From the IMG/VR virus record IMGVR_UViG_3300046355_000236: 64,000 nt of DNA; one strand, 5' to 3'. Both the position numbers and the translations under genes were made by a program. Shown here one piece after another: positions 42,302 to 55,631 of the stretch; position 1 is the first letter of the stretch; each line of letters begins with the position of its first letter. The notes beneath the pieces are model-generated. The model saw only the letters and a program-made list of their open reading frames with translations. It was not told the DNA's origin and did no database searches. This DNA is from a virus (Duplodnaviria > Heunggongvirae > Uroviricota > Caudoviricetes).

Positions 42302-42958
42302 ATGAATATTACCAAGTTTCCAGTGCTAATCTTATCAGCCCCAAGGACAGGAAGCACTCCTCTGATGCAGTACATACAAAAACACTGCAATGAGGACGTG
42401 CCTTTCTTCATGGAGCCGACTACAGGCAACTGGCAGCCGGGCGTTTCCCACTGGTCTACTGGCAAAGTAATGGATGAATTTATGGCAACTGCCACAACTT
42501 CTCATAAATTCATCGTCAAAGACCACATCCATACGTTTTCAAAGCACGATCAACATATACAAAACCTTCTGTTATCAGATTCAACGTTTAAAATCCGACT
42601 ACAACGACGCAATTTTGCCGAACAAGTGGCGAGTCGGTACATCGTGTGGTGTAGGAATGAGTGGCACTACACGGAAAAAACTGTTTCTACAGATTACGAA
42701 CAGCCAATTCCACTGAGTGCTGACATAATTTTACGAATTTGCAGCTTCATACATGCAATAAATGAGCAGCTTCGCGAAACAGATATAAATTTTGACCTGG
42801 ATTTGTACTACGAAGATGTGTTGACATCGTGTGACTTAGACCAGTCAGGGCTTTTGGCGACTCCAAAACCTAAAAACTACCAAGAACTACTGGATTTTAT
42901 CAAATTCCAAATAGAGCACGCCTGGCCGTCTCATAGTACACGTCACCTTCGTTTATAG
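42302..42958 (+). CDS. sulfotransferase-like protein
   Basis: LILSAPRTGSTPL resembles the 5'-PSB PAPS-binding loop (PKxGTT). Confidence 0.5.
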   Translation: MNITKFPVLILSAPRTGSTPLMQYIQKHCNEDVPFFMEPTTGNWQPGVSHWSTGKVMDEFMATATTSHKFIVKDHIHTFSKHDQHIQNLLLSDSTFKIRLQRRNFAEQVASRYIVWCRNEWHYTEKTVSTDYEQPIPLSADIILRICSFIHAINEQLRETDINFDLDLYYEDVLTSCDLDQSGLLATPKPKNYQELLDFIKFQIEHAWPSHSTRHLRL

Positions 42959-43511
42959 TTCTGAGTGAAAGTAGCTTGCGATTGCTATCACTCATCCTAT
43001 TATCGAAGTCATGGTAGATGTCGACGTTGATTAGTATGCACTCACCCTGCTTAAATGTAGCTGTTTTGGCGGGAGTAAACTTATCTGGGTCGAAACCTTT
43101 CAGTTCTCGTGTGAACGGACCGTCGTTAAACACCTCATACCCCTGGCTGACCGACTCATCATACCAGTTGGTCTTGCATTTATCGTCATTTACTTCTAGG
43201 TAATAGTTAATACCGAACCTATTACACAGTCCATCTTTGTGTGCAACGTAGTAACTATTCGGTTTAGCGCTCAACATCCCCGTATGGCGTGTTTTTGTTT
43301 TTACTAAGCTGAACGGACTCAGTGTATGGATAAGGTATTCATCGGCAAGAGGCAGTCTTATATGGCCAACCTTCTTTGCTGATGCCTCTTCATCAAAGAA
43401 CTGTTTGTTGGCCTGAGCAATGCGCTGGCCAATCTCTATGATGTCTTCCATATTTTCATGAACAATCCTCATGTAGTAAGGACTGCAGTCTTCGATGATT
43501 TCAATTTTCAT
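42900..43511 (-). CDS. cupin / 2OG-Fe(II) oxygenase-like protein
   Basis: AHKDG ... YHDFDN gives HxD...H. Confidence 0.4.
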   Translation of the reverse strand: MKIEIIEDCSPYYMRIVHENMEDIIEIGQRIAQANKQFFDEEASAKKVGHIRLPLADEYLIHTLSPFSLVKTKTRHTGMLSAKPNSYYVAHKDGLCNRFGINYYLEVNDDKCKTNWYDESVSQGYEVFNDGPFTRELKGFDPDKFTPAKTATFKQGECILINVDIYHDFDNRMSDSNRKLLSLRTINEGDVYYETARRALFGI

Positions 43512-44952
43512 TGTAGGATCTGTCTAGTAGAATATCGCGGTAGTTGTTTACAGTATCGAGCACTCTAAGTGATAACATATCGCTTTCTGGCATTCGTCTA
43601 TCATCAGCTAAACGTATGCCTAGATTCTTGATAATTGTTGTAGCAAAACCACCCACTCGGTTTCTTTTTGTTGTTTGGCATTTGGTTGCTATATCACTAC
43701 TGAACGATGCTGCCCATTTTCTGTCAAAATTTCCATTGTGCCACACGCCGTCATCCATTGTGTAGTATTTTTGCCAGTTAAGGTCAAACTCACTTTTGAA
43801 TGTTTTTTTATCTGATATGTCTATGGTTAGTGGAGATATGGCAAAGCTGTCCAATGGATAATCAGGTGATAACAACCGTTCAGACCATCCAGCAATAGTG
43901 TCTGTGGTTTCATATGGCAATCCAGCAATAAAACTTCCCTCGGTCGAGCATTGAGGCATTAGAGTTTTAAACCTGTGTAATTCGTCCTCGATCTTCTCAG
44001 GTCGCAATCCTTTGCCTACAGCCTTACTGCTTTCGTAGTTCAGAGATTCGATTCCGAAGAGCGCACCAACCAAACCAGCATCCTTTAACATGGTATACTG
44101 TTCTGGATGTGCTCTTAGCAGCTCCAACCTAATGTATGCTGTGTACTCAAAGTTGAATGGCAGACTTTGCTTAACATCAGCCAGCATTGCTAACTTTACT
44201 GAGGTGTCGTTGTGTGTATCATCCGCAATAATGTAACTTGTAGTACCACGTTCGTAGTAATTTTTGATTAATTCATTGTAGATGGTCTGTTTATGCTTTA
44301 CGTAATCGTTTTTCTTTTTCCCATTCAGCGGATAATTGCAAAACGAGCATTTGAAAATACATCCTCTTGCAATTTCGAGAACTAGACTTTCCCCATGTCT
44401 AATGTTATCATGTGCAATGTATTCGATTGCGCTTGAATTGAAATCAAACGAGGAGTTATGTGTATTGCCATCCAATACCATTTTGTTATTGGCGTTTGTT
44501 GAATATGTGAAGAATGGATTCTTGCCATCCAACCATTTTAAATACTCAACGATAGATCTATCAGCATATCCAGTGGCCAGCACGTCAACAAGGTTATGAG
44601 ATAAGGCTAGTACGTTTGCACCGCCTGCAACGATCTTTGTACTGCTGTTAATCTTTTTTATGTGTTTGAATACTATGTCCACTCTTCTCAAGTACACATT
44701 CGTGTCTGCATCACGGTATGGGTTCAGCCCATGTGTAAAGGTCGTGCTTATACCTACAACCTTTGTAGACTTTCCTACACTTGCTGTAATAGCAGAAAGC
44801 AAATCATTAATTGGTAGTTGTGAAAAGAAGTCAACTATTTGACAGCTATAGTTGGCTGATCTGATTTCTGTTGCAAGACGGTATGCACCAGCGGTCCTCA
44901 TTCCAAATGAGGCTTCAGACAGGATCACGACGTCTGCGTTAGACTGTATCAT
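43501..44952 (-). CDS. B12-binding-domain radical SAM enzyme (class B-like)
   Basis: CSFCNYP is the CxxxCxxC radical SAM cluster motif; N-terminal region before it is B12/Rossmann-like. Confidence 0.6.
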   Translation of the reverse strand: MIQSNADVVILSEASFGMRTAGAYRLATEIRSANYSCQIVDFFSQLPINDLLSAITASVGKSTKVVGISTTFTHGLNPYRDADTNVYLRRVDIVFKHIKKINSSTKIVAGGANVLALSHNLVDVLATGYADRSIVEYLKWLDGKNPFFTYSTNANNKMVLDGNTHNSSFDFNSSAIEYIAHDNIRHGESLVLEIARGCIFKCSFCNYPLNGKKKNDYVKHKQTIYNELIKNYYERGTTSYIIADDTHNDTSVKLAMLADVKQSLPFNFEYTAYIRLELLRAHPEQYTMLKDAGLVGALFGIESLNYESSKAVGKGLRPEKIEDELHRFKTLMPQCSTEGSFIAGLPYETTDTIAGWSERLLSPDYPLDSFAISPLTIDISDKKTFKSEFDLNWQKYYTMDDGVWHNGNFDRKWAASFSSDIATKCQTTKRNRVGGFATTIIKNLGIRLADDRRMPESDMLSLRVLDTVNNYRDILLDRSYNEN

Positions 44953-44990
44953 TATAATTCATACTGTGCCGGTGTTCCAGCACAGGGTAC

Positions 44991-45290
44991 TTACGCTTCT
45001 ATGATAGTTTCGGTAATGTTTTTAGTAATACCACGCTCAGTAAGAAGGGGATCCTGGGCGCTCAACAGCGCGATTGTGATTGGGCTGTCAGCCACTACCT
45101 GCCAATCAGCTTTGGTTTCCCAATCAACATTGTTGGTAATCTCAGTATCTGTGTTGACTAAGTTGAATTTGCCAATAAAACCGCTCGCAGTAGCAATTAA
45201 ATCGTTATAGTCATCAATCTGGCTCAGCCCTTCCCATGGCCATGCCACATCTGTGCTTGGTCTAATCCATTGAATTGTGCGTCTGTACAT
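44991..45290 (-). CDS. hypothetical protein
   Basis: ORF in operon context. Confidence 0.35.
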   Translation of the reverse strand: MYRRTIQWIRPSTDVAWPWEGLSQIDDYNDLIATASGFIGKFNLVNTDTEITNNVDWETKADWQVVADSPITIALLSAQDPLLTERGITKNITETIIEA

Positions 45291-45320
45291 AGTTGCCTCG
45301 TTTGTAAATATTGTAGCTAT

Positions 45321-45968
45321 TTATCTATTAATGAAAAACCCCGGAGTCAAGGGATCATCAACCTTTACTTGAACAGCTAATCTACCTCGTCGGTCTCCCT
45401 GAATATTATGTACGCTATGCAACACAGTAGCTTTCATTAAATACCACGTACGGGGTTTAAAACAAGCCTCACCTAAAAACTCACAATTGTCCCAATCGTT
45501 CAAGAACGTACTTCTGCTTCGCTCGATAGGCATTCCACGTTCTCTCCAGAATTTTGTATACTGATCTGGGTTGCTTGCTTCCAAAATGTAGATTAAAACA
45601 AAATCTCTACTCATATCCGTGTGAATAGGAGCAGTTGTACCGTCACCTTCTTTGTTCTGATATGCGACATTGACGTAAGACCCATCATGAACCTTACATA
45701 CATTCTCTGATACCCACGTATCAAACTGATCACTTAGTTTAAACTTAATATTTGGTCGACCTCTGACTATCTTACCGTCGAGATCTTTGATTTCCCTGAA
45801 CCAAATACTAGGACTCAGCTCTTTATACAGCTCTCCCGTCTGTGGGACCGCGTTGTTTTCATCCAAAGCAATTGCCATAGCCTCGTCGATGAGCGATTGT
45901 GGTAGGTTTGGTACGTTCGAAAGCTCTTCAAATAAAAACACTTCTTCTGTGTCGTCTTTATAATACAT
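45321..45968 (-). CDS. cupin / 2OG-Fe(II) oxygenase-like protein
   Basis: IHTDMSRD ... LHSVHNI gives HxD...H. Confidence 0.4.
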   Translation of the reverse strand: MYYKDDTEEVFLFEELSNVPNLPQSLIDEAMAIALDENNAVPQTGELYKELSPSIWFREIKDLDGKIVRGRPNIKFKLSDQFDTWVSENVCKVHDGSYVNVAYQNKEGDGTTAPIHTDMSRDFVLIYILEASNPDQYTKFWRERGMPIERSRSTFLNDWDNCEFLGEACFKPRTWYLMKATVLHSVHNIQGDRRGRLAVQVKVDDPLTPGFFINR

Positions 45969-45975
45969 ATTTTTC

Positions 45976-47166
45976 CTATACGTTGAGCGTAAACAATTTT
46001 GTAGTTATCATCTGAAGACCTACCATTCTACCATTAGCATCTACAGTTTTGAATTGAGGGCTAATACCGTCAGACAGATCGTTGAGTTTATATATTAGTT
46101 TATTGTTTATGTGTTTAAACTCGTCTGATGTATACAGATAGTGAAACCACGGATGGTATATTTTGTTAAAGTTGTCTGGTTTCGCTACTTGGAACGTATT
46201 CTGGTCCCAGTTTGGATAACAGACTGAATTAACCACTTTATCAAACTCAAAAAACATTTCGAGCTTTTTATTATGAGTCGCAGTCTTCCTTACGTTTAGA
46301 TCGATCAACCTTTTTAGATGAGGATTGCGTCTTACATAGAATGCAACAGCATGTGCTCTTGCAAGCGTTAGATCAGGATAATCAGCAGAGTAGTAAAAGT
46401 TTACCCTAGAATCTACTTCTAGTTTATTATGGGAGTGTTGGTTGCCAGCAGCCATAATAGTTAGATCAGGGAAGCAAGTAGCGAACTTATCTGTGTTTGG
46501 ATCGTATGTTAGGATCGGCTTGTCGATACCAAAAATATTAGCTACCCGTTTTCCCTTATTTCCATTAGCAATAGCGTTTTCCGATACGACCTCGCTAAAC
46601 CCAAAGTTAGCCATTCCAAAGTTATGGTTCTGCTTATACAGCAGATCTTCGGTGATGTTAACTTGCTTTACAGTATCAATCCAATCATCAATAACAATCT
46701 TTATCTCAGGATGATGTTCTCTTACCCAGTCGAGTTTAGGCTTAATGGAAAAATCCCATTCACTCAACATATTGGTGGCACGTCTGTCGTTAATATCTGG
46801 TACATACTTGTTAGCATCTACCAAACGTTTGGGCCATCTCACGTAGATTTCATCTAGCTTGATATTGTTCTTTATGAAGGTTTCGAGAATTGTTGTGCTG
46901 TCAACACCACCACTAAAGTTGAGTATCAAGTAATCGTATGTTTCTCGTATCTGCCAAGCCCGAGTCTTGTACATATCTTCCAAGACGGTGCTCGGATTGT
47001 GCTTATACATCTTTAACGATGCATCCCATACCTCATCATAGTAATGGTATGTGACATTAGTCCTGCCCGCTGATGATGCATACAACAGCGCTTGCATCTT
47101 GCTAGTGAATACCTTAGCTCCACTAGCTGTGTGTGCTTTGTAATAACCCAGCGAGCTGTTTATCAT
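45976..47166 (-). CDS. PP-loop ATPase superfamily enzyme (PAPS reductase / TtcA / asparagine-synthase-like adenylating domain)
   Basis: LILNFSGGVDSTTIL is the SGGxDS PP-loop. Confidence 0.55.
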   Translation of the reverse strand: MINSSLGYYKAHTASGAKVFTSKMQALLYASSAGRTNVTYHYYDEVWDASLKMYKHNPSTVLEDMYKTRAWQIRETYDYLILNFSGGVDSTTILETFIKNNIKLDEIYVRWPKRLVDANKYVPDINDRRATNMLSEWDFSIKPKLDWVREHHPEIKIVIDDWIDTVKQVNITEDLLYKQNHNFGMANFGFSEVVSENAIANGNKGKRVANIFGIDKPILTYDPNTDKFATCFPDLTIMAAGNQHSHNKLEVDSRVNFYYSADYPDLTLARAHAVAFYVRRNPHLKRLIDLNVRKTATHNKKLEMFFEFDKVVNSVCYPNWDQNTFQVAKPDNFNKIYHPWFHYLYTSDEFKHINNKLIYKLNDLSDGISPQFKTVDANGRMVGLQMITTKLFTLNV

Positions 47167-48041
47167 TTCAGCAACCGCTTGATAATATCTTTTTCTGTTT
47201 TCAGTGCGTTAGGTTTTTTAGTGTCAATGCACGACTCATAACCCATGCCAGTAAAGATCTGTGCCATCTGTTCTTCATTGAGCTTTTTGTCGATGTATGT
47301 CTTTAACTTGGTCGATAATGCCGTATTACCTACAAATAGTTGGCGACTTTTGAACCCATGAATATCAACCCCGACATCTTTGAACGTAGGGACATCAGGA
47401 TACTTTTTAAGAGGTTGTGACGCTGCTAGGATTCTAAACTTACCTGAGTCGATGAGAGGTGAAACCAGTGTAACACTATCCAAATACCACACGATTGTAT
47501 CGGCAAGAAGAGCATTCATAACATCAGCAGCACCCTTGAATGGAATCTCGATTTGGTTCTTATCACCTCCTGCGATTAGTGGCGACACCATACTCTGCAC
47601 CGTACCAGTTCCTGATGTGCCGTATGGGATTGTTCTGGTTGCTGATGCTGAGCGAATATCTTGAAATCGTTTGATCGGGCTATCTGCTTTCACAATAACA
47701 ACACTTGGATCGGTAATTAGACACGACAAGAAAATGAAGTCGTTTTCGATATCGTATTTTGCATTGCCAAGTAGTGTATTAGTGACGAGTGCTTGACCAC
47801 TTACCAGTAGCGTCGGTTCACTCTTTTCATTTGCTACAAGAGTTGCTCCAAGAGCTCCGCCAGCTCCTGGTTTGTTCTCAACCACAAAAGTGTATTCATC
47901 GTTGGTTAGATGAGTCTGCAATTGACGTGCTAATTTGTCTGATGTTCCCCCTGCTGTGTATGGAACGACTATCTTAATGGTTTCTTTTGCGTATGTGGTA
48001 AAGCTAGCAGCTAAGAGTAGAATGGTAATTAGTTTTTTCAT
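47163..48041 (-). CDS. TctC/Bug-family-like periplasmic solute-binding protein
   Basis: Signal peptide MKKLITILLLAASFTTYA; IVVPYTAGGTSD..PGAGGALGA pattern. Confidence 0.45.
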   Translation of the reverse strand: MKKLITILLLAASFTTYAKETIKIVVPYTAGGTSDKLARQLQTHLTNDEYTFVVENKPGAGGALGATLVANEKSEPTLLVSGQALVTNTLLGNAKYDIENDFIFLSCLITDPSVVIVKADSPIKRFQDIRSASATRTIPYGTSGTGTVQSMVSPLIAGGDKNQIEIPFKGAADVMNALLADTIVWYLDSVTLVSPLIDSGKFRILAASQPLKKYPDVPTFKDVGVDIHGFKSRQLFVGNTALSTKLKTYIDKKLNEEQMAQIFTGMGYESCIDTKKPNALKTEKDIIKRLLK

Positions 48042-48043
48042 GA

Positions 48044-48910
48044 TTAAGGTTTATCAGTTCGAATAAGTTGTATGAACCAGAAGGTTGGATCGATCTCCCA
48101 CCACCTACGCCCTCCATAATTTGGATTGCGGCCTTCACCGTGATGGTTGTTATGCCACGCCTCTCCTAGTATTAAAGGAAAGAGCCACGGCGAATTTATA
48201 CTATCATCTTTAACTGCATAATTGCGATACCCCATCTGCGGTATATGAGTAACACTTGTTTGCAATAAAAACAAATGCAAAGTGATTACGGAAGGCAGCA
48301 GCAGTAAAAACACCCACAACTGTACACTAACCATTGCCAAAAGTAAATGGGTGATCCATATGATGTATATGTAATATTTGTGTGCAAACAGCATATCTGG
48401 ATCTCGTTGCAGATCGATTGTCGATCTAACACTAATGTTTACGTGTTTAAACATCCACGCCATGTAGCTGTGCCAAAATCCATCTCTTGGGCTGTGCAAA
48501 TCTTTTGGAGTATCGGCATGGCGATGGTGATACCCTCGATGTATGGAGCACCATGCAATAGGACTTCCTTGTCCTGCTAAGACGCCAAAATACAGAGTAA
48601 TCAGTTTAATATGTCTGCTTACTTTATACCCTCTGTGACAAAATAATCTGTGGTAACCAGCAGCAATACCAATCATCTTTAGGCAGACATAGCCTATAAG
48701 TAATGCAACCCACCACCAAGCGGGAATAGACACCGTAAACAGCGCTATAACAGCGATAACATGGAAAGGCACTATCACCCCCCATAGTTGAGGTAACTTA
48801 CGTGTATTTCTGAGTATTTGAGTTACCGATGTTTCCACTGCTTTAAAATGTCTTGATTGCCGTTGTAGATGATGTATTGCCAGCATGCGTCTTGTTGTTC
48901 GCATGGACAT
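48044..48910 (-). CDS. membrane His-box di-iron oxygenase (fatty-acid desaturase/hydroxylase-like)
   Basis: Several TM helices; His boxes HRLFCH, HRGYHHRH, HNNHH. Confidence 0.5.
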   Translation of the reverse strand: MSMRTTRRMLAIHHLQRQSRHFKAVETSVTQILRNTRKLPQLWGVIVPFHVIAVIALFTVSIPAWWWVALLIGYVCLKMIGIAAGYHRLFCHRGYKVSRHIKLITLYFGVLAGQGSPIAWCSIHRGYHHRHADTPKDLHSPRDGFWHSYMAWMFKHVNISVRSTIDLQRDPDMLFAHKYYIYIIWITHLLLAMVSVQLWVFLLLLPSVITLHLFLLQTSVTHIPQMGYRNYAVKDDSINSPWLFPLILGEAWHNNHHGEGRNPNYGGRRWWEIDPTFWFIQLIRTDKP

Positions 48911-49374
48911 GTCAAATACTTATATGGGTCTTTGGTAAAGTGAATGTTGTGATCATTTTTAAATGAATCGATCATCCAATCCTGCCAGTTGCTTGTTTCG
49001 CGGCTTATGAAATATAACTCGAAGTCGGTATGTTGCTTGAGCCAGTCTATCTGACTTGCACCAGCTGCACCTACGCCCAGCGTCACTCGCCGTAAATATT
49101 CTTTACGGTCATTGGGCTTCCACAATCTATTGTATATTCGATATGTGTCATCGGGCCAGCAGCTTCGTGCAGATATACTTGAACAAACAATAGGTTGGTT
49201 ATCACAATCAAATACGATTGTGCACGCTACACAATCATCCATCATTCTCTTGTTATAGTTTTTCCAAAGTCTGTGTGTTTTATCCTGGTGCTGCTTTTCG
49301 CGAAGACTGTCAAAAAGGGTATCCATTGCTGGATTGGACCCTGGAGTCCATGTTATCGATGTCACTGTTTGCAT
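48823..49374 (-). CDS. hypothetical Cys/Trp-rich protein
   Basis: ORF in operon context. Confidence 0.35.
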   Translation of the reverse strand: MQTVTSITWTPGSNPAMDTLFDSLREKQHQDKTHRLWKNYNKRMMDDCVACTIVFDCDNQPIVCSSISARSCWPDDTYRIYNRLWKPNDRKEYLRRVTLGVGAAGASQIDWLKQHTDFELYFISRETSNWQDWMIDSFKNDHNIHFTKDPYKYLTCPCEQQDACWQYIIYNGNQDILKQWKHR

Positions 49375-50243
49375 AGGTTATATTTTTTCATGAAGGCAAA
49401 AAAATCTATATCGTAACTACCATTCCATCTTTTGCCCTGCTTATGTAATTCTTGAAAGTAGGGGTGTTTGAAGATAGGTGATTGCTCGATCTGCTCATAA
49501 CCATGATACTTTGGTCGCGCAATAAGATTGAAACCACTATGTCTGTTGTATATCTCTACTTTGCTAGAGTTTGAACCTTGTTTGTGGGGGCGTCTATTAC
49601 TCGCCAATTCAAACATTACTGGATCTGTAAGCATTGCAGACATCATTTCAGGTCTGTATGTGTTGAAATGTGTAGTACCGTCTATTCCCTTTTTTTCAAA
49701 ATATCGATACACAGCAAATTCGTGCTCATCCAGATGTATTACCCATGACAGCGATTGTTGGTCTGGCTTTATGTACATCTCACCGTCACCACATATGACA
49801 GTGCCATCGAGCTTTTCAGCAACAAATGCTGTCAACGCCCGATGATATATTTCAGACTTACATATTTGAGCAACTTCGAGCATCTTACCACTAGAGACGA
49901 AGTGGTCGAAGTCAATGTTAATTACTAAAGGTGTTAGATTTTTTGATCTACAGAAATCAAAAGCATATTTGGTATCGTAGGTATTATATCCCTGTATCAT
50001 ATTGATAATGACAGGAACTATCGGTATACCAGCGCTGAGAAAAACACTCAATGTGTTTTCACTATCTAAACCACCACTATACAATAAGTGGAGCTTGCCG
50101 ACCTTTAGAGAATTAATTTCCTCTGCAGCCAGCAAGCTCTCTTTGTAATAGTTTTGAAACGTAGTGGGAAGAGGGTTAATATGGACAGTAAAATTAGAAC
50201 CATGACCGCGTGGTTCATAGTAATTGCTCTTTACAAAATCCAT
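49362..50243 (-). CDS. PP-loop ATPase superfamily enzyme
   Basis: LHLLYSGGLDSENTL is the SGGxDS PP-loop. Confidence 0.5.
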   Translation of the reverse strand: MDFVKSNYYEPRGHGSNFTVHINPLPTTFQNYYKESLLAAEEINSLKVGKLHLLYSGGLDSENTLSVFLSAGIPIVPVIINMIQGYNTYDTKYAFDFCRSKNLTPLVINIDFDHFVSSGKMLEVAQICKSEIYHRALTAFVAEKLDGTVICGDGEMYIKPDQQSLSWVIHLDEHEFAVYRYFEKKGIDGTTHFNTYRPEMMSAMLTDPVMFELASNRRPHKQGSNSSKVEIYNRHSGFNLIARPKYHGYEQIEQSPIFKHPYFQELHKQGKRWNGSYDIDFFAFMKKYNLCKQ

Positions 50244-50256
50244 ATTCCCTCTTTTA

Positions 50257-50730
50257 TTATGCAGCTAATACTTCCTTCAAACGATCAGCAGCGTATGATG
50301 CAGCAAACGCTCTTGGTTTAACCATTGGGATAACGTTACACGTTCCCTTGATGTATCCAATTGCTTGCTGTACAACACAGCTTGAACCATACATTTCGTT
50401 TGGGTTAATATCTAGGTGAACTTCAACTTCCCGATCTTCCAATACATCTTTCAACTTTTGGAACAAATCAGAAACCTTATACACTTCGTTCATCAACCGC
50501 ATTGAAGGCTTGCTCTTCTTTTGATCGTAGTCAAGTTCGGTTTGCACTTCACCGAAAATCTTACAACCATGACATCCATCGATGTGTACAACAACGGCGA
50601 GAGTATAGTCAGCATACCATTGGCCATTCAGTTTAAAGCGTACTGAATCAGCGCCAATGTAAATCTTTGTAGATGGTCCTTGTGCCTCAATGAATTCTTT
50701 AACTTCATTGATATCTAACTTTTTCATCAT
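50257..50730 (-). CDS. hypothetical protein (possible RNase H-like/YkuK-like fold)
   Basis: ORF; the ATG at 50730 is preferred over the TTG at 50739. Confidence 0.35.
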   Translation of the reverse strand: MMKKLDINEVKEFIEAQGPSTKIYIGADSVRFKLNGQWYADYTLAVVVHIDGCHGCKIFGEVQTELDYDQKKSKPSMRLMNEVYKVSDLFQKLKDVLEDREVEVHLDINPNEMYGSSCVVQQAIGYIKGTCNVIPMVKPRAFAASYAADRLKEVLAA

Positions 50731-50745
50731 ACTCTCCAAAATATT

Positions 50746-50819
50746 TGGTGCGGGGTAAGGGAATCGAACCCTTAACTAAACGTTGGCAACGTCTGATTTT
50801 ACCGTTAAACTAACCACGC
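50746..50819 (-). tRNA. tRNA-Gly (anticodon GCC), CCA encoded
   Basis: Hand-folded: acceptor GCGTGGT/ACCCCGC (one mismatch), loop TTGCCAA, T-arm AAGGG-TTCGATT-CCCTT. Confidence 0.7.
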
Positions 50820-50822
50820 ATG

Positions 50823-50846
50823 ATGGCAGGGGATACGTCCCCTGCC
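50823..50846. terminator. hairpin (possible bidirectional terminator)
   Basis: ggcagggga-tacg-tcccctgcc, 9-bp stem. Confidence 0.4.
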
Positions 50847-50851
50847 TTTAC

Positions 50852-52270
50852 TTAGGTCAACGCATAGCGATCGACCATAACTGCCTTAAGCATGATGCCT
50901 TGTGGAGTGAATTGTTCCGTGTTGGAAGACAAGACAGCTTTCACAACTGCTGGGCTAAACCCAGACACAAGCGCCACACCGGACTCGTTTGCCTTTACAG
51001 GTACGTTGTCCTTAGCGTTCAGGTTCCAGAACACAATGGCAGGAACCTTGTAGCCAGCTTCTGCAAACTTACGCTTGATCATCTGCATTGCAGAGTCATC
51101 GTACGTTGCGCACTGGTTGAATTGCATGTCTGACAGGATCAGCAACATTTCTGGCATCTCTGCTTGAGGAACGTTTGCATCTACAGCAGTCTTCAAGATC
51201 TTTGCCATAGCCTTGTTCAGGTTAGTGGACATATTCCAAGAAGACTTAGACATTTGCTGGACCTTCTGAACAATGTTGCCCTTCAAGTGCAACAGCTCTG
51301 GATTGTCAGAGAAAGTCAGGAACGTGTCCTTGAACTTACCCTTGTTCTTATCTGCCAGGTACAAACCAAGCGAGATAGCAACATCCATACAGGTCACAGA
51401 ACCAGAACCACCAGCTGGGCAGCTCATAGAGCCGGAAACATCAACCAAAGGCAGAATGTTTGCATCCCCAACGTAGTTAGGCAGAGCTTCCCATTGCTTT
51501 GCAATGTGATCCAACTCGGTCTTACCGTAGTTGTTAGACATATATCCGTTGCACATGCCTTTCAGCACGTCGTATGGATACACAGCCCCTGCGTTAACCT
51601 TGACGCCTGCTTCGCCCTTAACGAGCTTAGCAACGTATTCAGCAAACTTCGTACCGTGACGAGTAAACGCCTTCTTGTAACGAGCAGATGCTACGGATGG
51701 CACATGGTTGTAGTTAATATCATCCCACTTACCAGCACACATTTGCTGTTCGACCACATTCGTCAGATTAACCAACGACTTACGGTAGAACTTTGGCGAC
51801 ATGCCGAAGAAGGTACGAATCTCTGCGGCCAGAGGGCCTTGACGAGGTGTCCACTTTGCAGCCAAGCCATTCTTCTCACGAAGAGCATCACCTAACATGG
51901 TGAAAGCCTTAGCCTTCAGATCCTTATCTTCAAAAACAAAGATGTCATCCCAGCGACCGATTTCTGGCGTCTTGGCCAGCAATGCTGCTGCAGCATCCTT
52001 ATCGTGCTTTTCCAGATACTTTAGAATCTGACGGTACAACGCACGTTCACCAGATCCACCACGTGCGTCACGTGCCCATTGAGCAATACGCAATGCAACG
52101 TCTTTGTCTTCGACGTATGCGGCTACAAAGTCCTTGGTAATATCCTTACCACGGCTTGCACCGATCTTGAAAAACAAGTCTACACATGCATCTGCAGTGG
52201 ACTTGCGAGCCTTCATACCGTTAGTGGTACGAGCTTCTTGGTTCTTAACAGCTTCTACGAATGTTGACAT
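50852..52270 (-). CDS. Ro60-like protein (TROVE-like N-terminal domain + C-terminal vWA domain with MIDAS)
   Basis: MIDAS VDVSGSMS..; N-terminus TTNGMKARKST..LFFKIGASRG resembles the Ro60 TROVE signature FLCFGSEGG. Confidence 0.5.
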   Translation of the reverse strand: MSTFVEAVKNQEARTTNGMKARKSTADACVDLFFKIGASRGKDITKDFVAAYVEDKDVALRIAQWARDARGGSGERALYRQILKYLEKHDKDAAAALLAKTPEIGRWDDIFVFEDKDLKAKAFTMLGDALREKNGLAAKWTPRQGPLAAEIRTFFGMSPKFYRKSLVNLTNVVEQQMCAGKWDDINYNHVPSVASARYKKAFTRHGTKFAEYVAKLVKGEAGVKVNAGAVYPYDVLKGMCNGYMSNNYGKTELDHIAKQWEALPNYVGDANILPLVDVSGSMSCPAGGSGSVTCMDVAISLGLYLADKNKGKFKDTFLTFSDNPELLHLKGNIVQKVQQMSKSSWNMSTNLNKAMAKILKTAVDANVPQAEMPEMLLILSDMQFNQCATYDDSAMQMIKRKFAEAGYKVPAIVFWNLNAKDNVPVKANESGVALVSGFSPAVVKAVLSSNTEQFTPQGIMLKAVMVDRYALT

Positions 52271-52280
52271 AATGAACTCC

Positions 52281-52400
52281 TTTTCAAATCAACAGGTTAA
52301 ACTTTTTGCTAAGCGGGTGTGCTACCATTACACTACTAGTCGGAATCGAACCGATCCACCTGCGTGGGTTTGCATTAAAGAGATTGCGGAACTTAACCTA
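52281..52400 (-). ncRNA. E1: tRNA-like module (T-arm, then D-arm) inside a 7-bp stem, directly upstream of the Ro60-like gene; Y-RNA (YrlA-like) candidate
   Basis: Minus-strand RNA GCAGGUG-GA-UCGG-UUCGAUU-CCGA-CUAGUA-GUGU-AAUGGUAGC-ACAC-CCGC, flanked by UUUAGGUUAAG ... GUUUAACCUGUU; tail runs into the Ro60-like start codon. Confidence 0.5.
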
Positions 52401-52675
52401 AATTCAGCAGATTGGTTATCATTGAGGCTATCACGGCACTCAGCCAGATTCGGGCTATCTTTATGGTGATTTTTGTACTTGCTGTACCCAATCTAAAATC
52501 AACAGAGTAGTTTCCTTCTTTTTGTTTTACATGAGAACACGAAACTCATGTCTACCATACGTGTTAACGTATACAACCTTCAAAGCCCATACAGGCTCCA
52601 GTTGCATACCACCTTGGTAAGCCGTTACTGGAATTGCTCCCAGTTAGTTTTGTTTGCTGAACCTACTCTAAAAAC
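52401..52675 (-). ncRNA. structured leader with nested complementary motifs
   Basis: UUUUUAGAGUAGGUUCAGCAA at 52654-52675 pairs with CUACUCUGUU about 190 nt downstream on the RNA; several hairpins between them. Confidence 0.3.
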
Positions 52676-52702
52676 TCTCGATGACTCAATTATCTGTGCT
52701 TT

Positions 52703-53227
52703 TCAGATTAGAGTCAACTGTTTAAAAATATCTTCAAGCAAAATAGGTCTAAAATCTGTTTGCTCTACGCAAGCACAGAAGTACCAAGGATCAGGGTTTA
52801 CACCCCACTTGTCTTTGACCACATTTGCGTGCAAGTGACCGTGCACGTTAGCCTTGAAGCGGCCTTTGCTTTCCGTGTGAATGGGAATGTGACTAAAGAT
52901 GACGTTGTTCATCACATGGTAAGCTCTAATGTCCCGAAAATGTTCTGTATATTCTTCGAGACGGAAAATATCGTGGTTACCTTTGATCAGGACCTTGTCG
53001 CCATTCAACCTGCTAAGCGTTTTAAGTGCCTTTCGGTTAATAACAACATCACCCAAGTGATAAACCTTGTCGCCAGGACGAACAGTTTCGTTCCAACGCT
53101 TAATCATTTCTTCATCCATTTCTTCTGGCGTATCCCAGGGACGAAGCTTTGTTCCATCATCACGAAGGAACTTACACACACCGGCGTGGCCAAAGTGTGT
53201 GTCGCTAACTACGAATGTCGCAGCCAT
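52703..53227 (-). CDS. calcineurin-like metallophosphoesterase
   Basis: VVSDTHFGH, GDxxxR and GNHD motifs. Confidence 0.65.
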   Translation of the reverse strand: MAATFVVSDTHFGHAGVCKFLRDDGTKLRPWDTPEEMDEEMIKRWNETVRPGDKVYHLGDVVINRKALKTLSRLNGDKVLIKGNHDIFRLEEYTEHFRDIRAYHVMNNVIFSHIPIHTESKGRFKANVHGHLHANVVKDKWGVNPDPWYFCACVEQTDFRPILLEDIFKQLTLI

Positions 53228-53234
53228 AATAATC

Positions 53235-53426
53235 TCACTTTTTAATTAGGGGATTTTCTGTATTGTCGTACAGACTGAGTTTTTCGTTTTCTCTTACCAT
53301 TGCAGTAAGAGCCTCTTCACGCTTTTTCTTTTCTAGTCGTGATTCGCCAAAGATGCGTGTGTGACCTTCATCATATGCTTTGATATTTGTTGGTCGTTGG
53401 CTATCACCTTTTCCACCATCACTCAT
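53235..53426 (-). CDS. hypothetical small protein
   Basis: ORF coupled to the phosphoesterase gene. Confidence 0.35.
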   Translation of the reverse strand: MSDGGKGDSQRPTNIKAYDEGHTRIFGESRLEKKKREEALTAMVRENEKLSLYDNTENPLIKK

Positions 53427-53516
53427 AATAATCTCCTGGTGGTACTAGAAGGTAACGATCCTTCCTGTCAGGCTTATGAGACCCGTGCATATCCATCTAT
53501 GCTATAGTACCGTTAT

Positions 53517-53590
53517 TGGATGCGGGTGACGGATTCGAACCGCCGATGCTGCGAGCTTATGAGACTGCAGTGGTGACCTCCCTACCCGCG
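53517..53590 (-). tRNA. tRNA, initiator-like (C1xA72 mismatch, CAU in loop region); fold non-canonical
   Basis: Acceptor CGCGGGT/ACCCGCA + U + CCA, T-arm GGCGG-TTCGAAT-CCGTC; anticodon stem not resolvable by hand. Confidence 0.45.
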
Positions 53591-53597
53591 TAAATTT

Positions 53598-53671
53598 TGG
53601 TGCCCCTTGACAGAATCGAACTGCCGTAACCTGATTACAAAACAGGTGTAATACCATTATACTAAAAGGGC
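53598..53671 (-). tRNA. tRNA (anticodon undetermined; 9-nt loop UUUUGUAAU)
   Basis: Acceptor GCCCTTT/AAGGGGC, stem ACCTG/CAGGT, T-arm CAGTTCGATTCTG. Confidence 0.55.
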
Positions 53672-53676
53672 AAAAT

Positions 53677-53752
53677 TGGCTGGCCAACCTGGGCTCGAAC
53701 CAGGGACATTTTGATTAACAGTCAAACGCTCTACCAACTGAGCTATAGGCCA
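53677..53752 (-). tRNA. tRNA-Asn (GUU)
   Basis: D-arm GCTC-AGTTGGTA-GAGC, anticodon arm TTTGA-CTGTTAA-TCAAA, T-arm CCTGG-TTCGAGC-CCAGG. Confidence 0.75.
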
Positions 53753-53790
53753 ATATCTTGTATTATATAGTCGACCCGTTAAAAGTCAAC

Positions 53791-53865
53791 TGGTGGATGG
53801 TACTGGGATCGAACCAGTGACCGCTTCCATGTCAAGGAAGTATTCTACCGCTGAAATAACCATCC
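53791..53865 (-). tRNA. tRNA-Val (GAC)
   Basis: Perfect acceptor GGATGGT/ACCATCC; anticodon arm CTTCC-TTGACAT-GGAAG. Confidence 0.75.
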
Positions 53866-53869
53866 ATTT

Positions 53870-53944
53870 TGGTGCCCACGAAAGGACTCGAACCTTCACT
53901 CCGTCGATTATGAGTCGACCGCTTCACCTTTAAGCTACCTGGGC
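53870..53944 (-). tRNA. tRNA-Met or Ile2 (CAU), elongator type
   Basis: D-arm GCTT-AAAGGTG-AAGC; anticodon arm GTCGA-CTCATAA-TCGAC. Confidence 0.75.
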
Positions 53945-53949
53945 ATCTC

Positions 53950-54027
53950 TGGTGCGGCCAATGGGATTCGAACCCATACTGTACAGATTTTAAGTCTGTT
54001 GCCTCCTACCTATTGCGCTATGGCCGC
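53950..54027 (-). tRNA. Leu-anticodon tRNA (UAA), atypical: short variable arm, enlarged D region, A73
   Basis: Perfect acceptor GCGGCCA/TGGCCGC; anticodon arm ACAGA-CTTAAAA-TCTGT; near-identical body to 54301..54377. Confidence 0.55.
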
Positions 54028-54028
54028 A

Positions 54029-54137
54029 AAACCATATTAAAACACACTGCTCACTATCTTTATGTACACTATTACATAGTGGGTTGCATATTGTTCGTGT
54101 GTGCCATGCAACTAGCGCCTCACAGTGTGTTTTAATA
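54029..54137 (-). ncRNA. spacer with perfect 19-bp terminal inverted repeat (long hairpin, RNase III-like substrate candidate)
   Basis: accatattaaaacacactg ... cagtgtgttttaatatgg, with inner palindromes cactat..atagtg and ttgcat..atgcaa; the stem includes the CCA end of the next tRNA. Confidence 0.5.
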
Positions 54138-54214
54138 TGGCGCGCCAAGAGGGATTCGAACCCCCGACATGCGGTGTAGAAGACCGCTGTTCTATCCAGC
54201 TGAACTATAGGCGC
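54138..54214 (-). tRNA. tRNA-Arg (UCU)
   Basis: D-arm GTTC-AGCTGGATA-GAAC; anticodon arm GCGGT-CTTCTAC-ACCGC. Confidence 0.7.
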
Positions 54215-54218
54215 AAAT

Positions 54219-54292
54219 TGGTGCTCTCGTCAAGAATCGAACTTGAGTTACATCCGTACCAAGGATGTGTAATGCCATTATACTACAAGAGC
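54219..54292 (-). tRNA. tRNA-Thr (GGU)
   Basis: Anticodon arm CATCC-TTGGTAC-GGATG. Confidence 0.7.
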
Positions 54293-54300
54293 ATTTATAT

Positions 54301-54377
54301 TGGTACCCACAGCGAGATTCGAACTCGCACTGTACAGATTTTGAATCTGTTGCCTCCTACCTATTGCGCTATGTGGG
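54301..54377 (-). tRNA. Leu-anticodon tRNA (CAA), atypical short variable arm, A73
   Basis: Perfect acceptor GCCCACA/TGTGGGT; anticodon arm ACAGA-TTCAAAA-TCTGT. Confidence 0.55.
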
Positions 54378-54594
54378 CATTATTAAACAGGATACGTTTT
54401 TTACTCTGCTCTACCAACTGAGCTACCCCTCCACTAAACTTATTCATCGAACTCCTCAGACGGTTACTCTAAGTCATAACGCTCTTCAAATCGTAGACCA
54501 ATACGACAGGAATAAGTTTAGTGGAGGGGGATGGAATTGAACCACCGACACGAGGCTTTCAATGCATTTTATGTTGCTGAATGTATCCTAAAAC
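54378..54594 (-). ncRNA. E3: permuted tRNA-like module with 20-bp acceptor-extension helix enclosing a ~65-nt loop
   Basis: RNA: T-arm GGTGG-TTCAATT-CCATC, CCCCTCC-A-CTAAACTTATTC [loop] GAATAAGTTTAG-T-GGAGGGG, TA, D-arm GCTC-AGTTGGTA-GAGC; flanked by GUUUUAGGAUAC.. and ..GUAUCCUGUU. Confidence 0.55.
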
Positions 54595-54596
54595 TT

Positions 54597-54686
54597 TGGC
54601 GGTGCGACTGAGACTCGAACTCAGAACCCAGCTTTCGCTAAGCGACAGATTAGCAATCTGCTCTAATACCATTATAGGACCGCACC
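54597..54686 (-). tRNA. tRNA-Ser (GCU), type II
   Basis: Anticodon arm CAGAT-TGCTAAT-ATCTG; long variable arm. Confidence 0.7.
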
Positions 54687-54693
54687 AATATTC

Positions 54694-54783
54694 TGGCGGT
54701 GTGTGGAGGAGTCGAACCCCGGCCAGCATTCGCCAACCGTCCGCTTTCCAGGCGGATGCTAGAACCATCTAGCTGCACACACC
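54694..54783 (-). tRNA. tRNA-Ser (GGA), type II
   Basis: Anticodon arm TCCGC-CTGGAAA-GCGGA; long variable arm. Confidence 0.65.
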
Positions 54784-54911
54784 AATAACAGGTTCAATTT
54801 TTTACGTGCTACCACTACACCAACGCGAAGACCAACTCGCGTCCGGGATTCGAACCCGGCCCCTCTTTTTTACAGAAAGATTATTTTTGATTGCTGAAAT
54901 GAACCTAATGG
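54784..54911 (-). ncRNA. E2: permuted tRNA-like module (T-arm, acceptor-like hairpin, D-arm; no anticodon arm)
   Basis: RNA: CCGGG-TTCGAAT-CCCGG, ACGCGAG-TTGGTC-TTCGCGT, TG, GTGT-AGTGGTA-GCAC, then GUAAAAAAUUGAACCUGUU; flank helix UAGGUUCA / UGAACCUG. Confidence 0.55.
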
Positions 54912-55035
54912 TCTAATTTAACAGGATGCTGTGTTATCGCCGGGAATCGAACCCCTATTACAAACACGGTCCCCAACTGGACGGCCTGGCAAAAGTGGCG
55001 CCATAAGTTGTTTGCTGTATTCATCCTAAAAATGG
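54912..55035 (-). ncRNA. E4: armless tRNA-like module (D-arm GTCC-AGTTGGG-GGAC then T-arm GGG-TTCGATT-CCC)
   Basis: No pairing acceptor stem; framed by AUUUUUAGGAUGA.. and ..GCAUCCUGUUAA. Confidence 0.4.
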
Positions 55036-55094
55036 CGGGACATTTAAAATTGCAGAATAAATTCTTTACAGAATTATATTTTTGTCCCATAACT
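55036..55094 (-). ncRNA. AT-rich hairpin spacer (GGGACA/TGTCCC stem, ~50-nt loop)
   Basis: Inverted repeat with inner palindromes agaat..attct. Confidence 0.3.
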
Positions 55095-55186
55095 TGGCGG
55101 AAAGCAGAGGAGTCGAACCCCATCCCCGTTAGGAGAACCTGGTTTTCAAGGCCAGTCGCAGGACCAACCCCGCTGCATTACTTTCC
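55095..55186 (-). tRNA. tRNA-Ser (UGA), type II
   Basis: Anticodon arm CTGGC-CTTGAAA-ACCAG (4 bp); long variable arm. Confidence 0.65.
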
Positions 55187-55194
55187 ATTATTCT

Positions 55195-55458
55195 TTAGAC
55201 ATCCTCATATGTTGCAAGGATGTGTTGCTCTTCAATGATGAAGAACGGAACTGCACCGAACTTTGAAGGTTGGGCTTTGCTCCAATCGATATACACATAG
55301 TCTCCGATCTTAACATCAGCTACATCTGGTCCTGTGGCAATCACTTTACCACGTGGGCTTTCTGATTCGTGCCCTTCAACAATAATACCAGATGCAGTAG
55401 CATTTGCTGGTTTAATCCGAGCAACTGCGACTTTATTTCCAATAGGAACTAGTGCCAT
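55195..55458 (-). CDS. GroES-like co-chaperonin (cpn10; T4 gp31 analog)
   Basis: 87 aa; KVAVARIKP...ASGIIV...GKVIATGPD...VKIGDYV matches the GroES mobile loop and roof hairpin. Confidence 0.65.
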   Translation of the reverse strand: MALVPIGNKVAVARIKPANATASGIIVEGHESESPRGKVIATGPDVADVKIGDYVYIDWSKAQPSKFGAVPFFIIEEQHILATYEDV

Positions 55459-55474
55459 AACAAACCTTTAAAAT

Positions 55475-55548
55475 TGGCATCCCGGGAGGGACTCGAACCC
55501 CCACAAACAGTTTTGGAGACTGCTGTGCTGCCATTACACTACCGAGAT
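55475..55548 (-). tRNA. tRNA-Trp (CCA)
   Basis: D-arm GTGT-AATGGCA-GCAC; anticodon arm GCAGT-CTCCAAA-ACTGT. Confidence 0.7.
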
Positions 55549-55555
55549 ATAAAAA

Positions 55556-55631
55556 TGGTGCCAAGGGACGGGATCGAACCGCCGACACACGGATTTTCAA
55601 TCCGCTGCTCTACCATCTGAGCTACCGAGGC
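55556..55631 (-). tRNA. tRNA-Phe (GAA); acceptor stem with two central mismatches
   Basis: D-arm GCTC-AGATGGTA-GAGC; anticodon arm GCGGA-TTGAAAA-TCCGT. Confidence 0.65.

Follow-up and report, generated by a model that had tools for sequence, protein, structure and literature searches.

This report concerns a block of enzyme genes in a 64,000-nucleotide stretch of DNA (the window) from the tailed phage recorded in IMG/VR as IMGVR_UViG_3300046355_000236. The block consists of ten minus-strand genes that abut or overlap from 50739 to 42900 (g11 to g2), plus one convergent plus-strand gene (g1). Far from being peculiar to one phage, the assortment exemplifies phage cassettes that are widespread, lack annotation and are in circulation among hundreds of large, uncultivated phages. 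At its core is a new pairing, in which an orphan AsnB-type synthetase is found together with uptake of the tripartite tricarboxylate transporter (TTT) type and with a membrane desaturase. What might such an operon do? Our preferred reading, to which we give somewhat less than an even chance, is that it is a mosaic accessory (auxiliary-metabolism) operon, which would combine uptake-coupled, ATP-dependent amidation of a carboxylate with the tailoring of a lipid or small molecule.

Recurrence of the gene families

One of the two synthetase genes, g6, belongs to a family of 1,819 representative clusters at 50% identity (E<=1e-3), 890 of them at or below 1e-30. Its relatives are found on at least 495 IMG/VR viral contigs, and carrier contigs include phage genomes of ~100-355 kb with gp32, gp59, PhoH, Clp protease and RNA ligase. 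A scan of 185,579 species genomes (one per species) gave a single fragment of a metagenome-assembled genome, which confines the g6 family essentially to viruses and metagenomes. The g10 and g9 families likewise come from metagenomes only.

Phages in GenBank give a very different picture. Among 50,697 GenBank phage records, tblastn finds no match for g3, g6 or g10. For g7 it finds one unannotated faecal contig, and for g8 it finds Pelagibacter phage Mosig (29% identity, the only cultured-phage homologue) and an entry labelled 'Acinetobacter phage MD-2021a' (CAKLQH020000002.1; locus L089). This last entry was rejected as a phage match, being evidently a mislabelled piece of bacterial chromosome with trpB, trpC, btuB, baeSR and aidB around the desaturase gene. 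An initial annotation of the window had called the assortment unusual for a phage. This is true of the GenBank phages, from which it is nearly absent, but not of the uncultivated ones, since the same families and gene orders recur on the IMG/VR contigs and on many metagenome contigs.

The company kept by g6-type genes was surveyed by fetching 84 loci that bear them, with 10 kb of flanking sequence on each side, and clustering the open reading frames (ORFs). TctC genes accompany g6 in 63 loci, g10-type genes in 37, g8-type genes in 33, a family of ~190-aa proteins (fam4) in 32, g4-like genes in 21 and cobalamin (B12)-type radical SAM genes in about 17. Further companions are Asp_Arg_Hydrox-type cupins, P450 and Rieske oxygenases and tandem radical SAM-SPASM genes. 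The half-dozen families of the block co-occur far more than other families do. In two of the loci (L011 and L012, positions 67-5061), four tandem radical SAM paralogues, with an SPASM-type Cys-rich domain N-terminal to the core, lie 5-10 kb upstream of the g6-type gene. Judged by eye, some other families of these islands resemble Fe-S assembly proteins of the IscU/IscA type, proteins like peroxiredoxin or AhpD, porins and rubrerythrin/rubredoxin, with Pfam assignments on record only for porin and rubrerythrin/rubredoxin. Such genes would suit an island rich in redox enzymes.

Layout and source of the operon

The block of enzyme genes described in the initial annotation is real. The ORF list holds every one of its ORFs at the coordinates given there, and the quoted motifs are present. 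In addition, each gene has many homologues, which argues that these are not chance ORFs. The largest intergenic gap within the minus-strand operon (g2-g11) is 38 nt. The stop codon of g7 lies over the start of g6 (a 4-nt overlap), and g3 and g2 overlap by 11 nt. With the start of g9 in the ORF list (49374), g10 and g9 overlap by 13 nt, and with the start called for g9 on an identical contig (49365) they overlap by 4 nt. The genes are arranged for co-expression. A scan for promoters and terminators gave no enrichment over shuffled sequences, and Rfam revealed no riboswitch, matching only tRNA.

Most of the enzyme classes proposed earlier are right, and profile searches of the block brought up no T4 structural or housekeeping gene. 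Pfam, NCBIfam, PHROGs and PADLOC yield nothing usable for g2, g4, g5, g6, g9 or g10. The PADLOC defence and anti-defence models find only a generic radical SAM match for g3 (PDC-M51A, 1.2e-8) in the block, plus matches at noise level.

Where does the operon come from? The gp32 gene at the end of the window is ~50-55% identical to gp32 of cyanomyoviruses and of Stenotrophomonas phage DLP6, and a protein identical to g10 is encoded on a 169,610-bp JGI contig. Therefore, the source is an uncultivated T4-like phage of ~170 kb. Megablast against the GenBank phage records gave no match for the block or for window positions 1-25000, and positions 50000-64000 matched tRNA genes only.

Two orphan AsnB-type synthetases

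The genes g6 (396 aa; 45976-47166, minus strand) and g10 (293 aa; 49362-50243, minus strand) had been read as two PP-loop adenylating enzymes, and this is confirmed. g6 carries SGGVDS and g10 carries SGGLDS, with the S, G, G, D and S invariant in 30 homologues of g6 and 31 of g10. The PP-loop, D234 and K329 are invariant throughout the g6 family. The relatedness of g6 and g10 to each other is confined to the surroundings of the PP-loop.

Sequence searches do not place the two proteins more precisely. Neither matches Asn_synthase (PF00733) in Pfam or NCBIfam at E<=0.1, no Pfam domain is on record for any of their database homologues, and sequence-profile searches of the PDB with the two families return only noise. 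The assignment comes from structure comparison, in which models of both proteins match AsnB, beta-lactam synthetase and CarA across 235-252 residues. For g6, the scores are 9.9 for AsnB (252 residues), 9.5 for beta-lactam synthetase and 9.1 for TsnB9. QueC and TilS are matched over about 140-157 residues, with lower Z than the AsnB-type proteins. LarE, TilS, NadE, GMP synthase, QueC and TtuA align only over the PP-loop core of ~150 residues, with lower scores, and TtuA, ThiI and MnmA score likewise lower where they are matched.

Both models have the fold of the synthetase domain, including its C-terminal helical subdomain. What is missing is the N-terminal Ntn glutaminase domain with its Cys at position 2. 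g6 starts with MINSS and g10 with MDFVK, and ~75 and ~50 residues, respectively, lie ahead of the PP-loop. Because neither protein has an N-terminal Cys, neither has an Ntn glutaminase. Taken together with the AsnB-type match, this makes g6 and g10 orphan AsnB-type adenylating synthetases. In other words, the models describe stand-alone synthetase domains that share both fold and invariant PP-loop with the carboxylate-adenylating amide synthetases. If the rest of the superfamily is a guide, they would convert a carboxylate to an acyl-adenylate, which ammonia or an amine would then capture. AsnB homologues that do not use glutamine typically form lactams (beta-lactam synthetase, CarA and the lasso cyclases).

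The signs of a nucleoside-modifying PP-loop enzyme were also looked for. QueC, TilS, TtcA/TtuA, ThiI and MnmA are marked by their family models, by catalytic Cys or Fe-S ligands (in the thiolases) or by a tRNA- or base-binding domain, and g6 and g10 have none of these. Pfam gives no QueC match for either protein, the best being E=0.0087 in PADLOC. The g6 family is not a thiolase because it has no invariant Cys. Finally, Pfam, NCBIfam and PADLOC detect no TGT/DpdA, THUMP or other nucleic-acid-binding domain in the block.

A TctC-family protein beside g6

The next link is between g6 and organic-acid uptake. The gene that overlaps the start of g6, g7 (292 aa; 47163-48041, minus strand), encodes a TctC/Bug-family solute-binding protein of the TTT type. 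The initial annotation had suggested a TctC-like periplasmic binding protein, and the evidence for it is strong: g7 matches TctC (PF03401) at 7.8e-24 (85.1 bits, cutoff 27), and Bug27 (2qpq) among solved structures at 1.5e-25. TphC, BugD and AdpC are also matched, with 11 TctC/Bug structures at 1e-25 to 6e-14. The predicted signal peptide, MKKLITILLLAASFTTYA followed by KE, has an N-terminal KK, a hydrophobic stretch and an A-x-A-like site. A Sec-type signal peptide was found in 80 of 83 phage TctC ORFs by a hydrophobicity test, which is not a dedicated signal-peptide predictor. From its sequence, then, g7 is a bona fide TctC, a homologue of exported carboxylate-binding proteins. The best full-length plasmid-borne TctC matches are from Comamonadaceae and Cupriavidus, and at ~30% identity they are a lead to the host only.

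The proximity of the two genes is common. A TctC gene adjoins the g6-type gene on the same strand, in either order, for 38 of 94 non-redundant g6 genes, and lies within 5 kb for 64 of them. Some phages go further and carry the permease as well. TctA-family genes (PF01970; 6e-34 for the L084 member) adjoin g6 and/or TctC in L084 (12298-13635), L085 (11170-12468) and L060 (2808-4142 and 12238-13722), and the order in L085 is g6-TctA-TctC. In L035 (6370-7806) the TctA gene is ~1 kb from the g6-type gene. Binding proteins of the DctP (TRAP) type are also found, in L052, L074, L075, L079, L084, L085, L090 and L091. Phage-borne uptake of organic acids may be a broader theme.

The desaturase and its neighbours

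g8 (288 aa; 48044-48910, minus strand) had been described as a His-box membrane oxygenase. This can now be made more specific, as g8 is a homologue of the integral-membrane Delta9/SCD1-type di-iron acyl desaturases. Its His boxes are HRLFCH, HRGYHH and HNNHH, and a PDB profile search aligns residues 38-281 with the SCD1 structures 4zyo (4.3e-16) and 4ymk (1.9e-14). In Pfam, g8 has no PF00487 match at E<=0.1, and its match to the NCBIfam DesA family (5e-11, 42 bits) is far under the cutoff of 400. A homologue in L091 that is 53% identical has PF00487 on record. Across 33 related loci there are 62 ORFs homologous to g8, and a single locus can have as many as about five copies.

The start of g8 needs a comment. 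The gene caller places it at 48772 (242 aa), whereas the long form begins at 48910 (288 aa) and shares 88 nt (48823-48910) with the 3' end of g9, in a different frame. The overlap is probably real, because L007, L090 and L091 retain the N-terminal extension and because the SCD1 alignment begins at residue 38 of the long form.

g9 (48823-49374, minus strand) encodes a Cys-rich protein of 183 aa, or 180 aa from the probable start at 49365. It belongs to a family of 117 homologue clusters that has no Pfam family, no PDB profile match and no detectable relatives. C64, C156 and C164 are invariant in this family and C72 is nearly so. A g9 gene is always immediately upstream of a desaturase gene. The order g10-g9-g8 is kept in L007 and L091, and in L090 g9 and g8 are adjacent with g10 ~4 kb upstream. 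In other loci, a family of ~200-aa proteins or a Rieske protein stands in place of g9. Nearby genes in L090 and L091 encode, among others, an AMP-binding enzyme (acyl-CoA-ligase-type), a short-chain ketoreductase, an FA_hydroxylase, an acyl-carrier PP-binding protein, ATP-grasp enzymes and DctP binding proteins.

Putative tailoring enzymes at the downstream end

A radical SAM enzyme was expected in g3 (483 aa; 43501-44952, minus strand) from its CSFCNYP motif. The full motif is CIFKCSFCNYP (CxxxCxxC), and the Radical_SAM match in Pfam (1.1e-9; 39.1 bits, cutoff 29.5) leaves little doubt about this part of the claim. The B12-binding part is less firm. Pfam gives a weak match to B12-binding (E 0.04; 14.2 bits vs a cutoff of 32.1). 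The best NCBIfam matches are all to B12 radical SAM families (PhpK 1e-20, ladderane-lipid 2.5e-16 and HpnJ 1.4e-10), but score 40-74 bits against cutoffs of 360-600. Because every one of these scores is far below its cutoff, g3 is best described as cobalamin-type (class B-like) and a member of no named subfamily. RiPP (ribosomally synthesised and post-translationally modified peptide) C-methyltransferase families are also in the NCBIfam listing, and there is no PDB sequence match. In L004, L042, L045 and L069, homologues of g3 touch or overlap a g6-type, g10-type or TctC gene.

Two small proteins, g2 (203 aa; 42900-43511) and g5 (215 aa; 45321-45968), both on the minus strand, had been taken for cupin- or 2-oxoglutarate (2OG)-oxygenase-like proteins. 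Neither has a significant Pfam or PDB sequence match, and g2 also lacks an NCBIfam or PHROG match. What stands is the motif. By hhalign, g2, g5, fam4 and a further family (fam18) form one superfamily (91-96%): g2 matches fam4 at 91.5% probability and the g5 family at 66.7%, and g5 matches fam4 at 94.9% and fam18 at 93.4%. Across 24 sequences of these four groups, the only invariant residues after the initiator Met are H116, D118, H184 and R196 (g5 numbering). This is the 2OG-Fe(II) signature, an HxD...H iron triad with a distal Arg for 2-oxoglutarate, and so both are small oxygenase-like proteins. The hhalign probability to the Asp_Arg_Hydrox-positive families is at most 40%. A homologue of g2 that is 52% identical occurs in L007, and homologues of g5 adjoin or lie near the PP-loop/TctC pair in L002, L005 and L007.

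Between g3 and g5 lies g4 (99 aa; 44991-45290, minus strand), a member of a recurrent ~100-aa family (fam5; hhalign 94%) that is present in 21 loci. Coordinate comparison places fam5 members next to P450 genes in L010, L016 and L032. The match of g4 to TIGR03792 is weak (E=0.015).

The convergent gene g1 (218 aa; 42302-42958, plus strand), whose 3' end overlaps g2 by 59 nt, was thought to be a sulfotransferase. This is plausible, although the match is weak. The N-terminal 70 residues alone resemble Sulfotransfer_3 (E=0.003; 18.4 bits vs a Pfam cutoff of 27), and two motifs were picked out by eye, PRTGST (5'-PSB-like) and RRNFAEQVAS (3'-PB-like). Therefore, g1 can be called a PAPS-sulfotransferase-like P-loop protein, with that reservation. 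In L033, L034 and L045, g1 homologues lie on the opposite strand, 7-8 kb downstream of the matched g6-type gene.

The tRNA and tmRNA neighbourhood

The operon begins directly downstream of a minus-strand island of tRNA genes (50746-61176). The island had been counted as 33 tRNAs, but ARAGORN finds 31 plus a transfer-messenger RNA (tmRNA) gene at 60795-61176, with the tag ANDEKFALAA. Among the 31 are two tRNA-Met(CAT), one of which could be tRNA-Ile2, and duplicated tRNAs for Gln, Tyr and Glu. A tRNA-like gene with a four-base anticodon lies at 58226-58301. The last gene of the island is a tRNA-Gly(GCC) (50746-50819, minus strand; Rfam tRNA, 57.4 bits).

The first gene after this tRNA is g11 (160 aa; 50257-50739, minus strand), which encodes an RNaseH-like (YkuK/DUF458) protein (PF04308, 1e-15). 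Its homologues in L005 and L006 are 68-71% identical and equally placed relative to a TROVE-like gene. g11 is a conserved neighbour in close relatives and stands outside the recurrent cassettes. The gene at 50852-52270 (minus strand) had been called Ro60-like. The window protein itself matches DUF2828/DUF7788, and only its counterparts in related loci have weak TROVE and vWA_Ro60 matches. The DUF2828/DUF7788 gene is conserved beside the YkuK gene and the tRNA array in several related phages, among them L005 and L006, and in L026-L030 a gene of this type comes directly after the g6-type gene.

The adjacency to tRNA genes remarked on in the initial annotation holds well beyond this window. Of 54 related loci, 35 have a tRNA or tmRNA gene no more than 10 kb away, and 24 have at least five tRNAs. 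In L004 and L062 the TctC-g6 pair sits within the tRNA array. Perhaps the cassettes and the arrays are located together because both occupy the same plastic region of the genome.

Other features of these arrays deserve mention. In nine loci (L002, L005, L006, L007, L067, L070, L075, L084 and L085), a phage tmRNA gene is no more than a few kb away from a g6-type gene. In L006 and L070 the tmRNA follows downstream at a distance of at most about 250 bp. The tags in related loci range from ANDxxYALAA-like ones to long, unusual tags of 29-32 residues. Two loci contain tRNAs with a CTA anticodon, which ARAGORN labels tRNA-Pyl (L025, 1797-1873; L084, 6426-6501). These would be of the amber-suppressor type and could point to stop-codon reassignment in the two phages.

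Possible functions of the operon

How might these parts work together? The preferred reading divides the operon into three cassettes. In the first (g7-g6), the phage TctC-family protein, exported to the host periplasm, would capture an organic carboxylate there and pass it to a TTT permease, which may belong to the host or, where a phage encodes TctA, to the phage. Once the carboxylate has reached the cytoplasm, g6 would adenylate it with ATP and join it to ammonia or an amine, producing an amide or possibly a lactam. In the second cassette (g10-g9-g8), the other AsnB-type synthetase would act with the Cys-rich protein, possibly a metal or redox protein serving the desaturase, and with the desaturase itself on a fatty-acyl or lipid-like substrate. 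The third (g5, g4, g3, g2 and perhaps g1) could contribute hydroxylation, C-methylation or rearrangement, and sulfation. The data show the families and folds assigned above, the export of g7, the location of g8 in the membrane, the coupling of the genes and the return of the gene orders in other phages. The action of g6 on what g7 imports, amidation as the chemistry, the service of g9 to the desaturase, the cooperation of the cassettes and the identity of every substrate are all presumed in this scheme.

Several observations weigh against it. The g6, g10, g9, g5/g2 and g4 families are without a characterised member, and the substrates cannot be named. The 2OG-oxygenase assignment of g2 and g5 is based on a four-residue motif alone. 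There is no TctA or TctB gene in the window, so that g7 would need a host permease. The similarity matrices of adjacent g6 and TctC proteins do correlate, with r=0.71 vs a permutation maximum of 0.22 in a mirror-tree comparison, but this co-divergence may merely reflect shared genome ancestry. Furthermore, paralogous g6/TctC pairs within a genome show no conserved pair types. With ancestry uncontrolled, the correlation is not proof of specific g6/TctC pairing. Cassette composition also varies between loci, and a single shared pathway is not demonstrated. Finally, the scheme does not explain why so many of the related loci have tRNA or tmRNA genes nearby.

A bolder form of the idea takes the TctC-g6 pair, with its hundreds of relatives, for an unrecognised and very widespread phage strategy of 'import and amidate'. 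The phage would secrete a TTT binding protein of its own, at times encoding the permease too, to pirate a specific carboxylate from outside the cell or from the periplasm, and the dedicated orphan AsnB-type synthetase would turn it into an amide required by the phage. This is possible, but we would bet against it. One version involves NAD. The window contains an NAD+ salvage set, consisting of a fusion of NMNAT (cytidylyltransferase-like) and Nudix domains (22595-23614, plus strand) and an NAMPT gene (24560-25960, plus strand). Two-gene NAD+ salvage sets have been reported to counter NAD-depleting defence. Import of a pyridine carboxylate such as quinolinate or nicotinate and NadE-like amidation by the pair could feed these genes (22595-25960). 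However, no NAMPT or NMNAT homologue lies within 10 kb of a g6-type gene in any fetched locus, and for this reason the NAD version stays at low probability. In another version, the AsnB-like enzyme, the B12 radical SAM enzyme and the 2OG oxygenase might build a bioactive compound of the lactam type.

What if the genes have no common pathway at all? They might be unrelated passengers in a hypervariable 'junkyard' region beside the tRNA array, with cooperation limited to g7-g6 and g9-g8. Gene content and order around g6-type genes do differ widely among loci, paralogue numbers vary (up to about five desaturases and three TctC genes per locus), and comparable hypervariable islands exist in pelagimyophages and cyanomyophages (PMC7029224; Pelagibacter phage Mosig). 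Passengers would not be expected to have abutting or overlapping stops and starts throughout the block, to place g3 homologues against g6-type, g10-type or TctC genes in several distant loci, or to bring the same half-dozen families together so far above others. On balance this explanation is unlikely. We find it harder still to favour the modification of a peptide or protein, either RiPP-like or of a phage or host protein, in which the AsnB homologues would make intramolecular amides, the B12 radical SAM enzyme would methylate carbon and the oxygenases would hydroxylate residues. Lactam-forming AsnB homologues are indeed among the top structural matches of g6 and g10, RiPP C-methyltransferase families are in the list for g3, and related loci contain tandem radical SAM-SPASM genes and cupins like Asp/Asn beta-hydroxylases. 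Against this, gaps of at most 38 nt leave no room for a precursor-peptide gene in g2-g11, the search turned up neither a leader peptidase nor a transglutaminase-like B protein, and the link with TctC, TctA, DctP and a membrane desaturase is unexpected for RiPPs.

The idea that the initial annotation put forward, hypermodification of a nucleoside in tRNA or phage DNA, now seems the least probable of these. Here the PP-loop enzymes would activate a base or a carboxylated side chain, which the radical SAM enzyme and the oxygenases would tailor. Modification of tRNA does employ enzymes of the PP-loop, radical SAM and 2OG classes, and the operon begins directly after the tRNA/tmRNA island on the same strand, in a neighbourhood that is conserved in 35 of 54 loci. 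The difficulty lies with the proteins themselves. g7 has an export signal and g8 is an integral-membrane SCD1 homologue. g6 and g10 resemble AsnB-type enzymes over 235-252 residues, compared with about 140-157 for TilS and QueC. Nothing in the block matched TGT/DpdA, THUMP or another nucleic-acid-binding domain, QueC is not matched in Pfam, and the g6 family lacks an invariant Cys. The TctA permease linked to g6 in some phages does not fit either. Therefore, nucleoside hypermodification is weaker than the reworking of an organic acid or lipid, which is more likely and corresponds to the other chemistry that had been suggested, a lipid or small metabolite.

Elsewhere in the window and significance

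A separate group of genes at 3183-11256 (plus strand) has PHROG matches to a nucleotide-sugar epimerase, a glycosyltransferase and a Nol-like carbamoyltransferase and forms a glycan-modification cluster.

Phage auxiliary metabolic genes are normally recognised by their likeness to host genes. Here are two very large phage families, with ~1,800 clusters at 50% identity for g6 alone, that are invisible to Pfam, NCBIfam, PHROGs and PDB sequence searches and look AsnB-type only when modelled. If the 'import and amidate' idea is true, the PstS-type capture of phosphate would be joined by a new class of nutrient piracy, and a sizeable part of the 'dark matter' of large aquatic phages would gain a function. 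A further yield would be new amide-forming enzymes whose substrates are reported by the binding proteins dedicated to them. The analysis corrects the tempting reading of nucleoside hypermodification, yet it records a conserved tRNA-array neighbourhood that needs an explanation.

Comparison with known systems

The AsnB superfamily (E. coli AsnB, human ASNS, beta-lactam synthetase, CarA and TsnB9) is the obvious starting point. g6 and g10 differ from it in having no Ntn glutaminase domain and, in its place, an unrelated N-terminal region of ~75 residues in g6 and ~50 residues in g10. Identity to its members is 6-14%. We know of no AsnB-superfamily enzyme with TctC or a desaturase as a genomic partner. 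Thienamycin-type clusters contain ThnM (a beta-lactam-synthetase homologue), ThnK/L/P (cobalamin radical SAM enzymes) and ThnG/Q (2OG oxygenases). The block is similar in that a glutaminase-free AsnB-type synthetase, a B12 radical SAM enzyme and 2OG-type oxygenases appear to stand side by side, which is an analogy and not evidence of membership. Unlike the Thn and Car systems, it revealed no crotonase-type carboxymethylproline synthase (CarB/ThnE) or other committed-step enzyme, and the similarity is at the level of the fold.

The phage 7-deazaguanine system (QueC, QueE and DpdA) and TilS also invite comparison, because the block likewise offers a phage PP-loop ATPase together with a radical SAM enzyme, close to tRNA genes. 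However, the block has no DpdA/TGT, QueD or FolE, it includes an exported (predicted) and a membrane protein in the unit, and its structural match to QueC and TilS is the weaker one.

Closer in setting are the hypervariable islands of pelagimyophages and cyanomyophages (the 'host recognition cluster'), which contain genes for desaturases, Asp/Asn-hydroxylases, TauD, radical SAM enzymes, methylases and acetyltransferases (PMC7029224). Like the block, these are variable accessory-gene regions of T4-like aquatic phages. They lie among tail-fibre genes, whereas the block lies beside a tRNA/tmRNA array, and g6-type, g10-type and TctC genes were not found in Mosig or, apart from the faecal contig matched by g7, in any other GenBank phage.

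Desaturases are already familiar as auxiliary genes of phages, and cyanophages encode lipid desaturases (PMC5776448). g8 shares its three His boxes and an alignment of ~245 residues with SCD1. It differs from the cyanophage desaturases in that g8-type genes reach ~5 paralogues per locus and are found in fixed order with genes for an AsnB-like and a Cys-rich protein. To our knowledge, such a context has not been described for the cyanophage enzymes. Phage TctC/AsnB-like cassettes are not described in the literature that was searched, although absence from it is no proof of novelty.

The binding proteins Bug27, BugD and BugE of Bordetella, together with TphC and AdpC, resemble g7 in full-length homology, in the Sec signal peptide and, by eye, in the N-terminal motif P-x-x-G-G-x-x-D-x-x-x-R. 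What sets g7 apart is that it is phage-encoded and translationally coupled to an AsnB-like enzyme through overlapping genes, with no TctA or TctB in the window. Bug27 binds quinolinate and nicotinate (PMC11452294). It is the best structural relative of g7, and ~30% identity does not transfer its specificity.

The closest functional analogy may be cyanophage PstS. In that system the phage supplies only the periplasmic phosphate-binding protein, and the host permease boosts uptake during infection. Likewise, g7 is supplied alone and is proposed to use a permease of the host. Unlike PstS, it would serve a TTT system rather than an ABC transporter and carry a carboxylate rather than phosphate. It is also paired with a dedicated cytoplasmic enzyme, and in some phages the permease comes with it.

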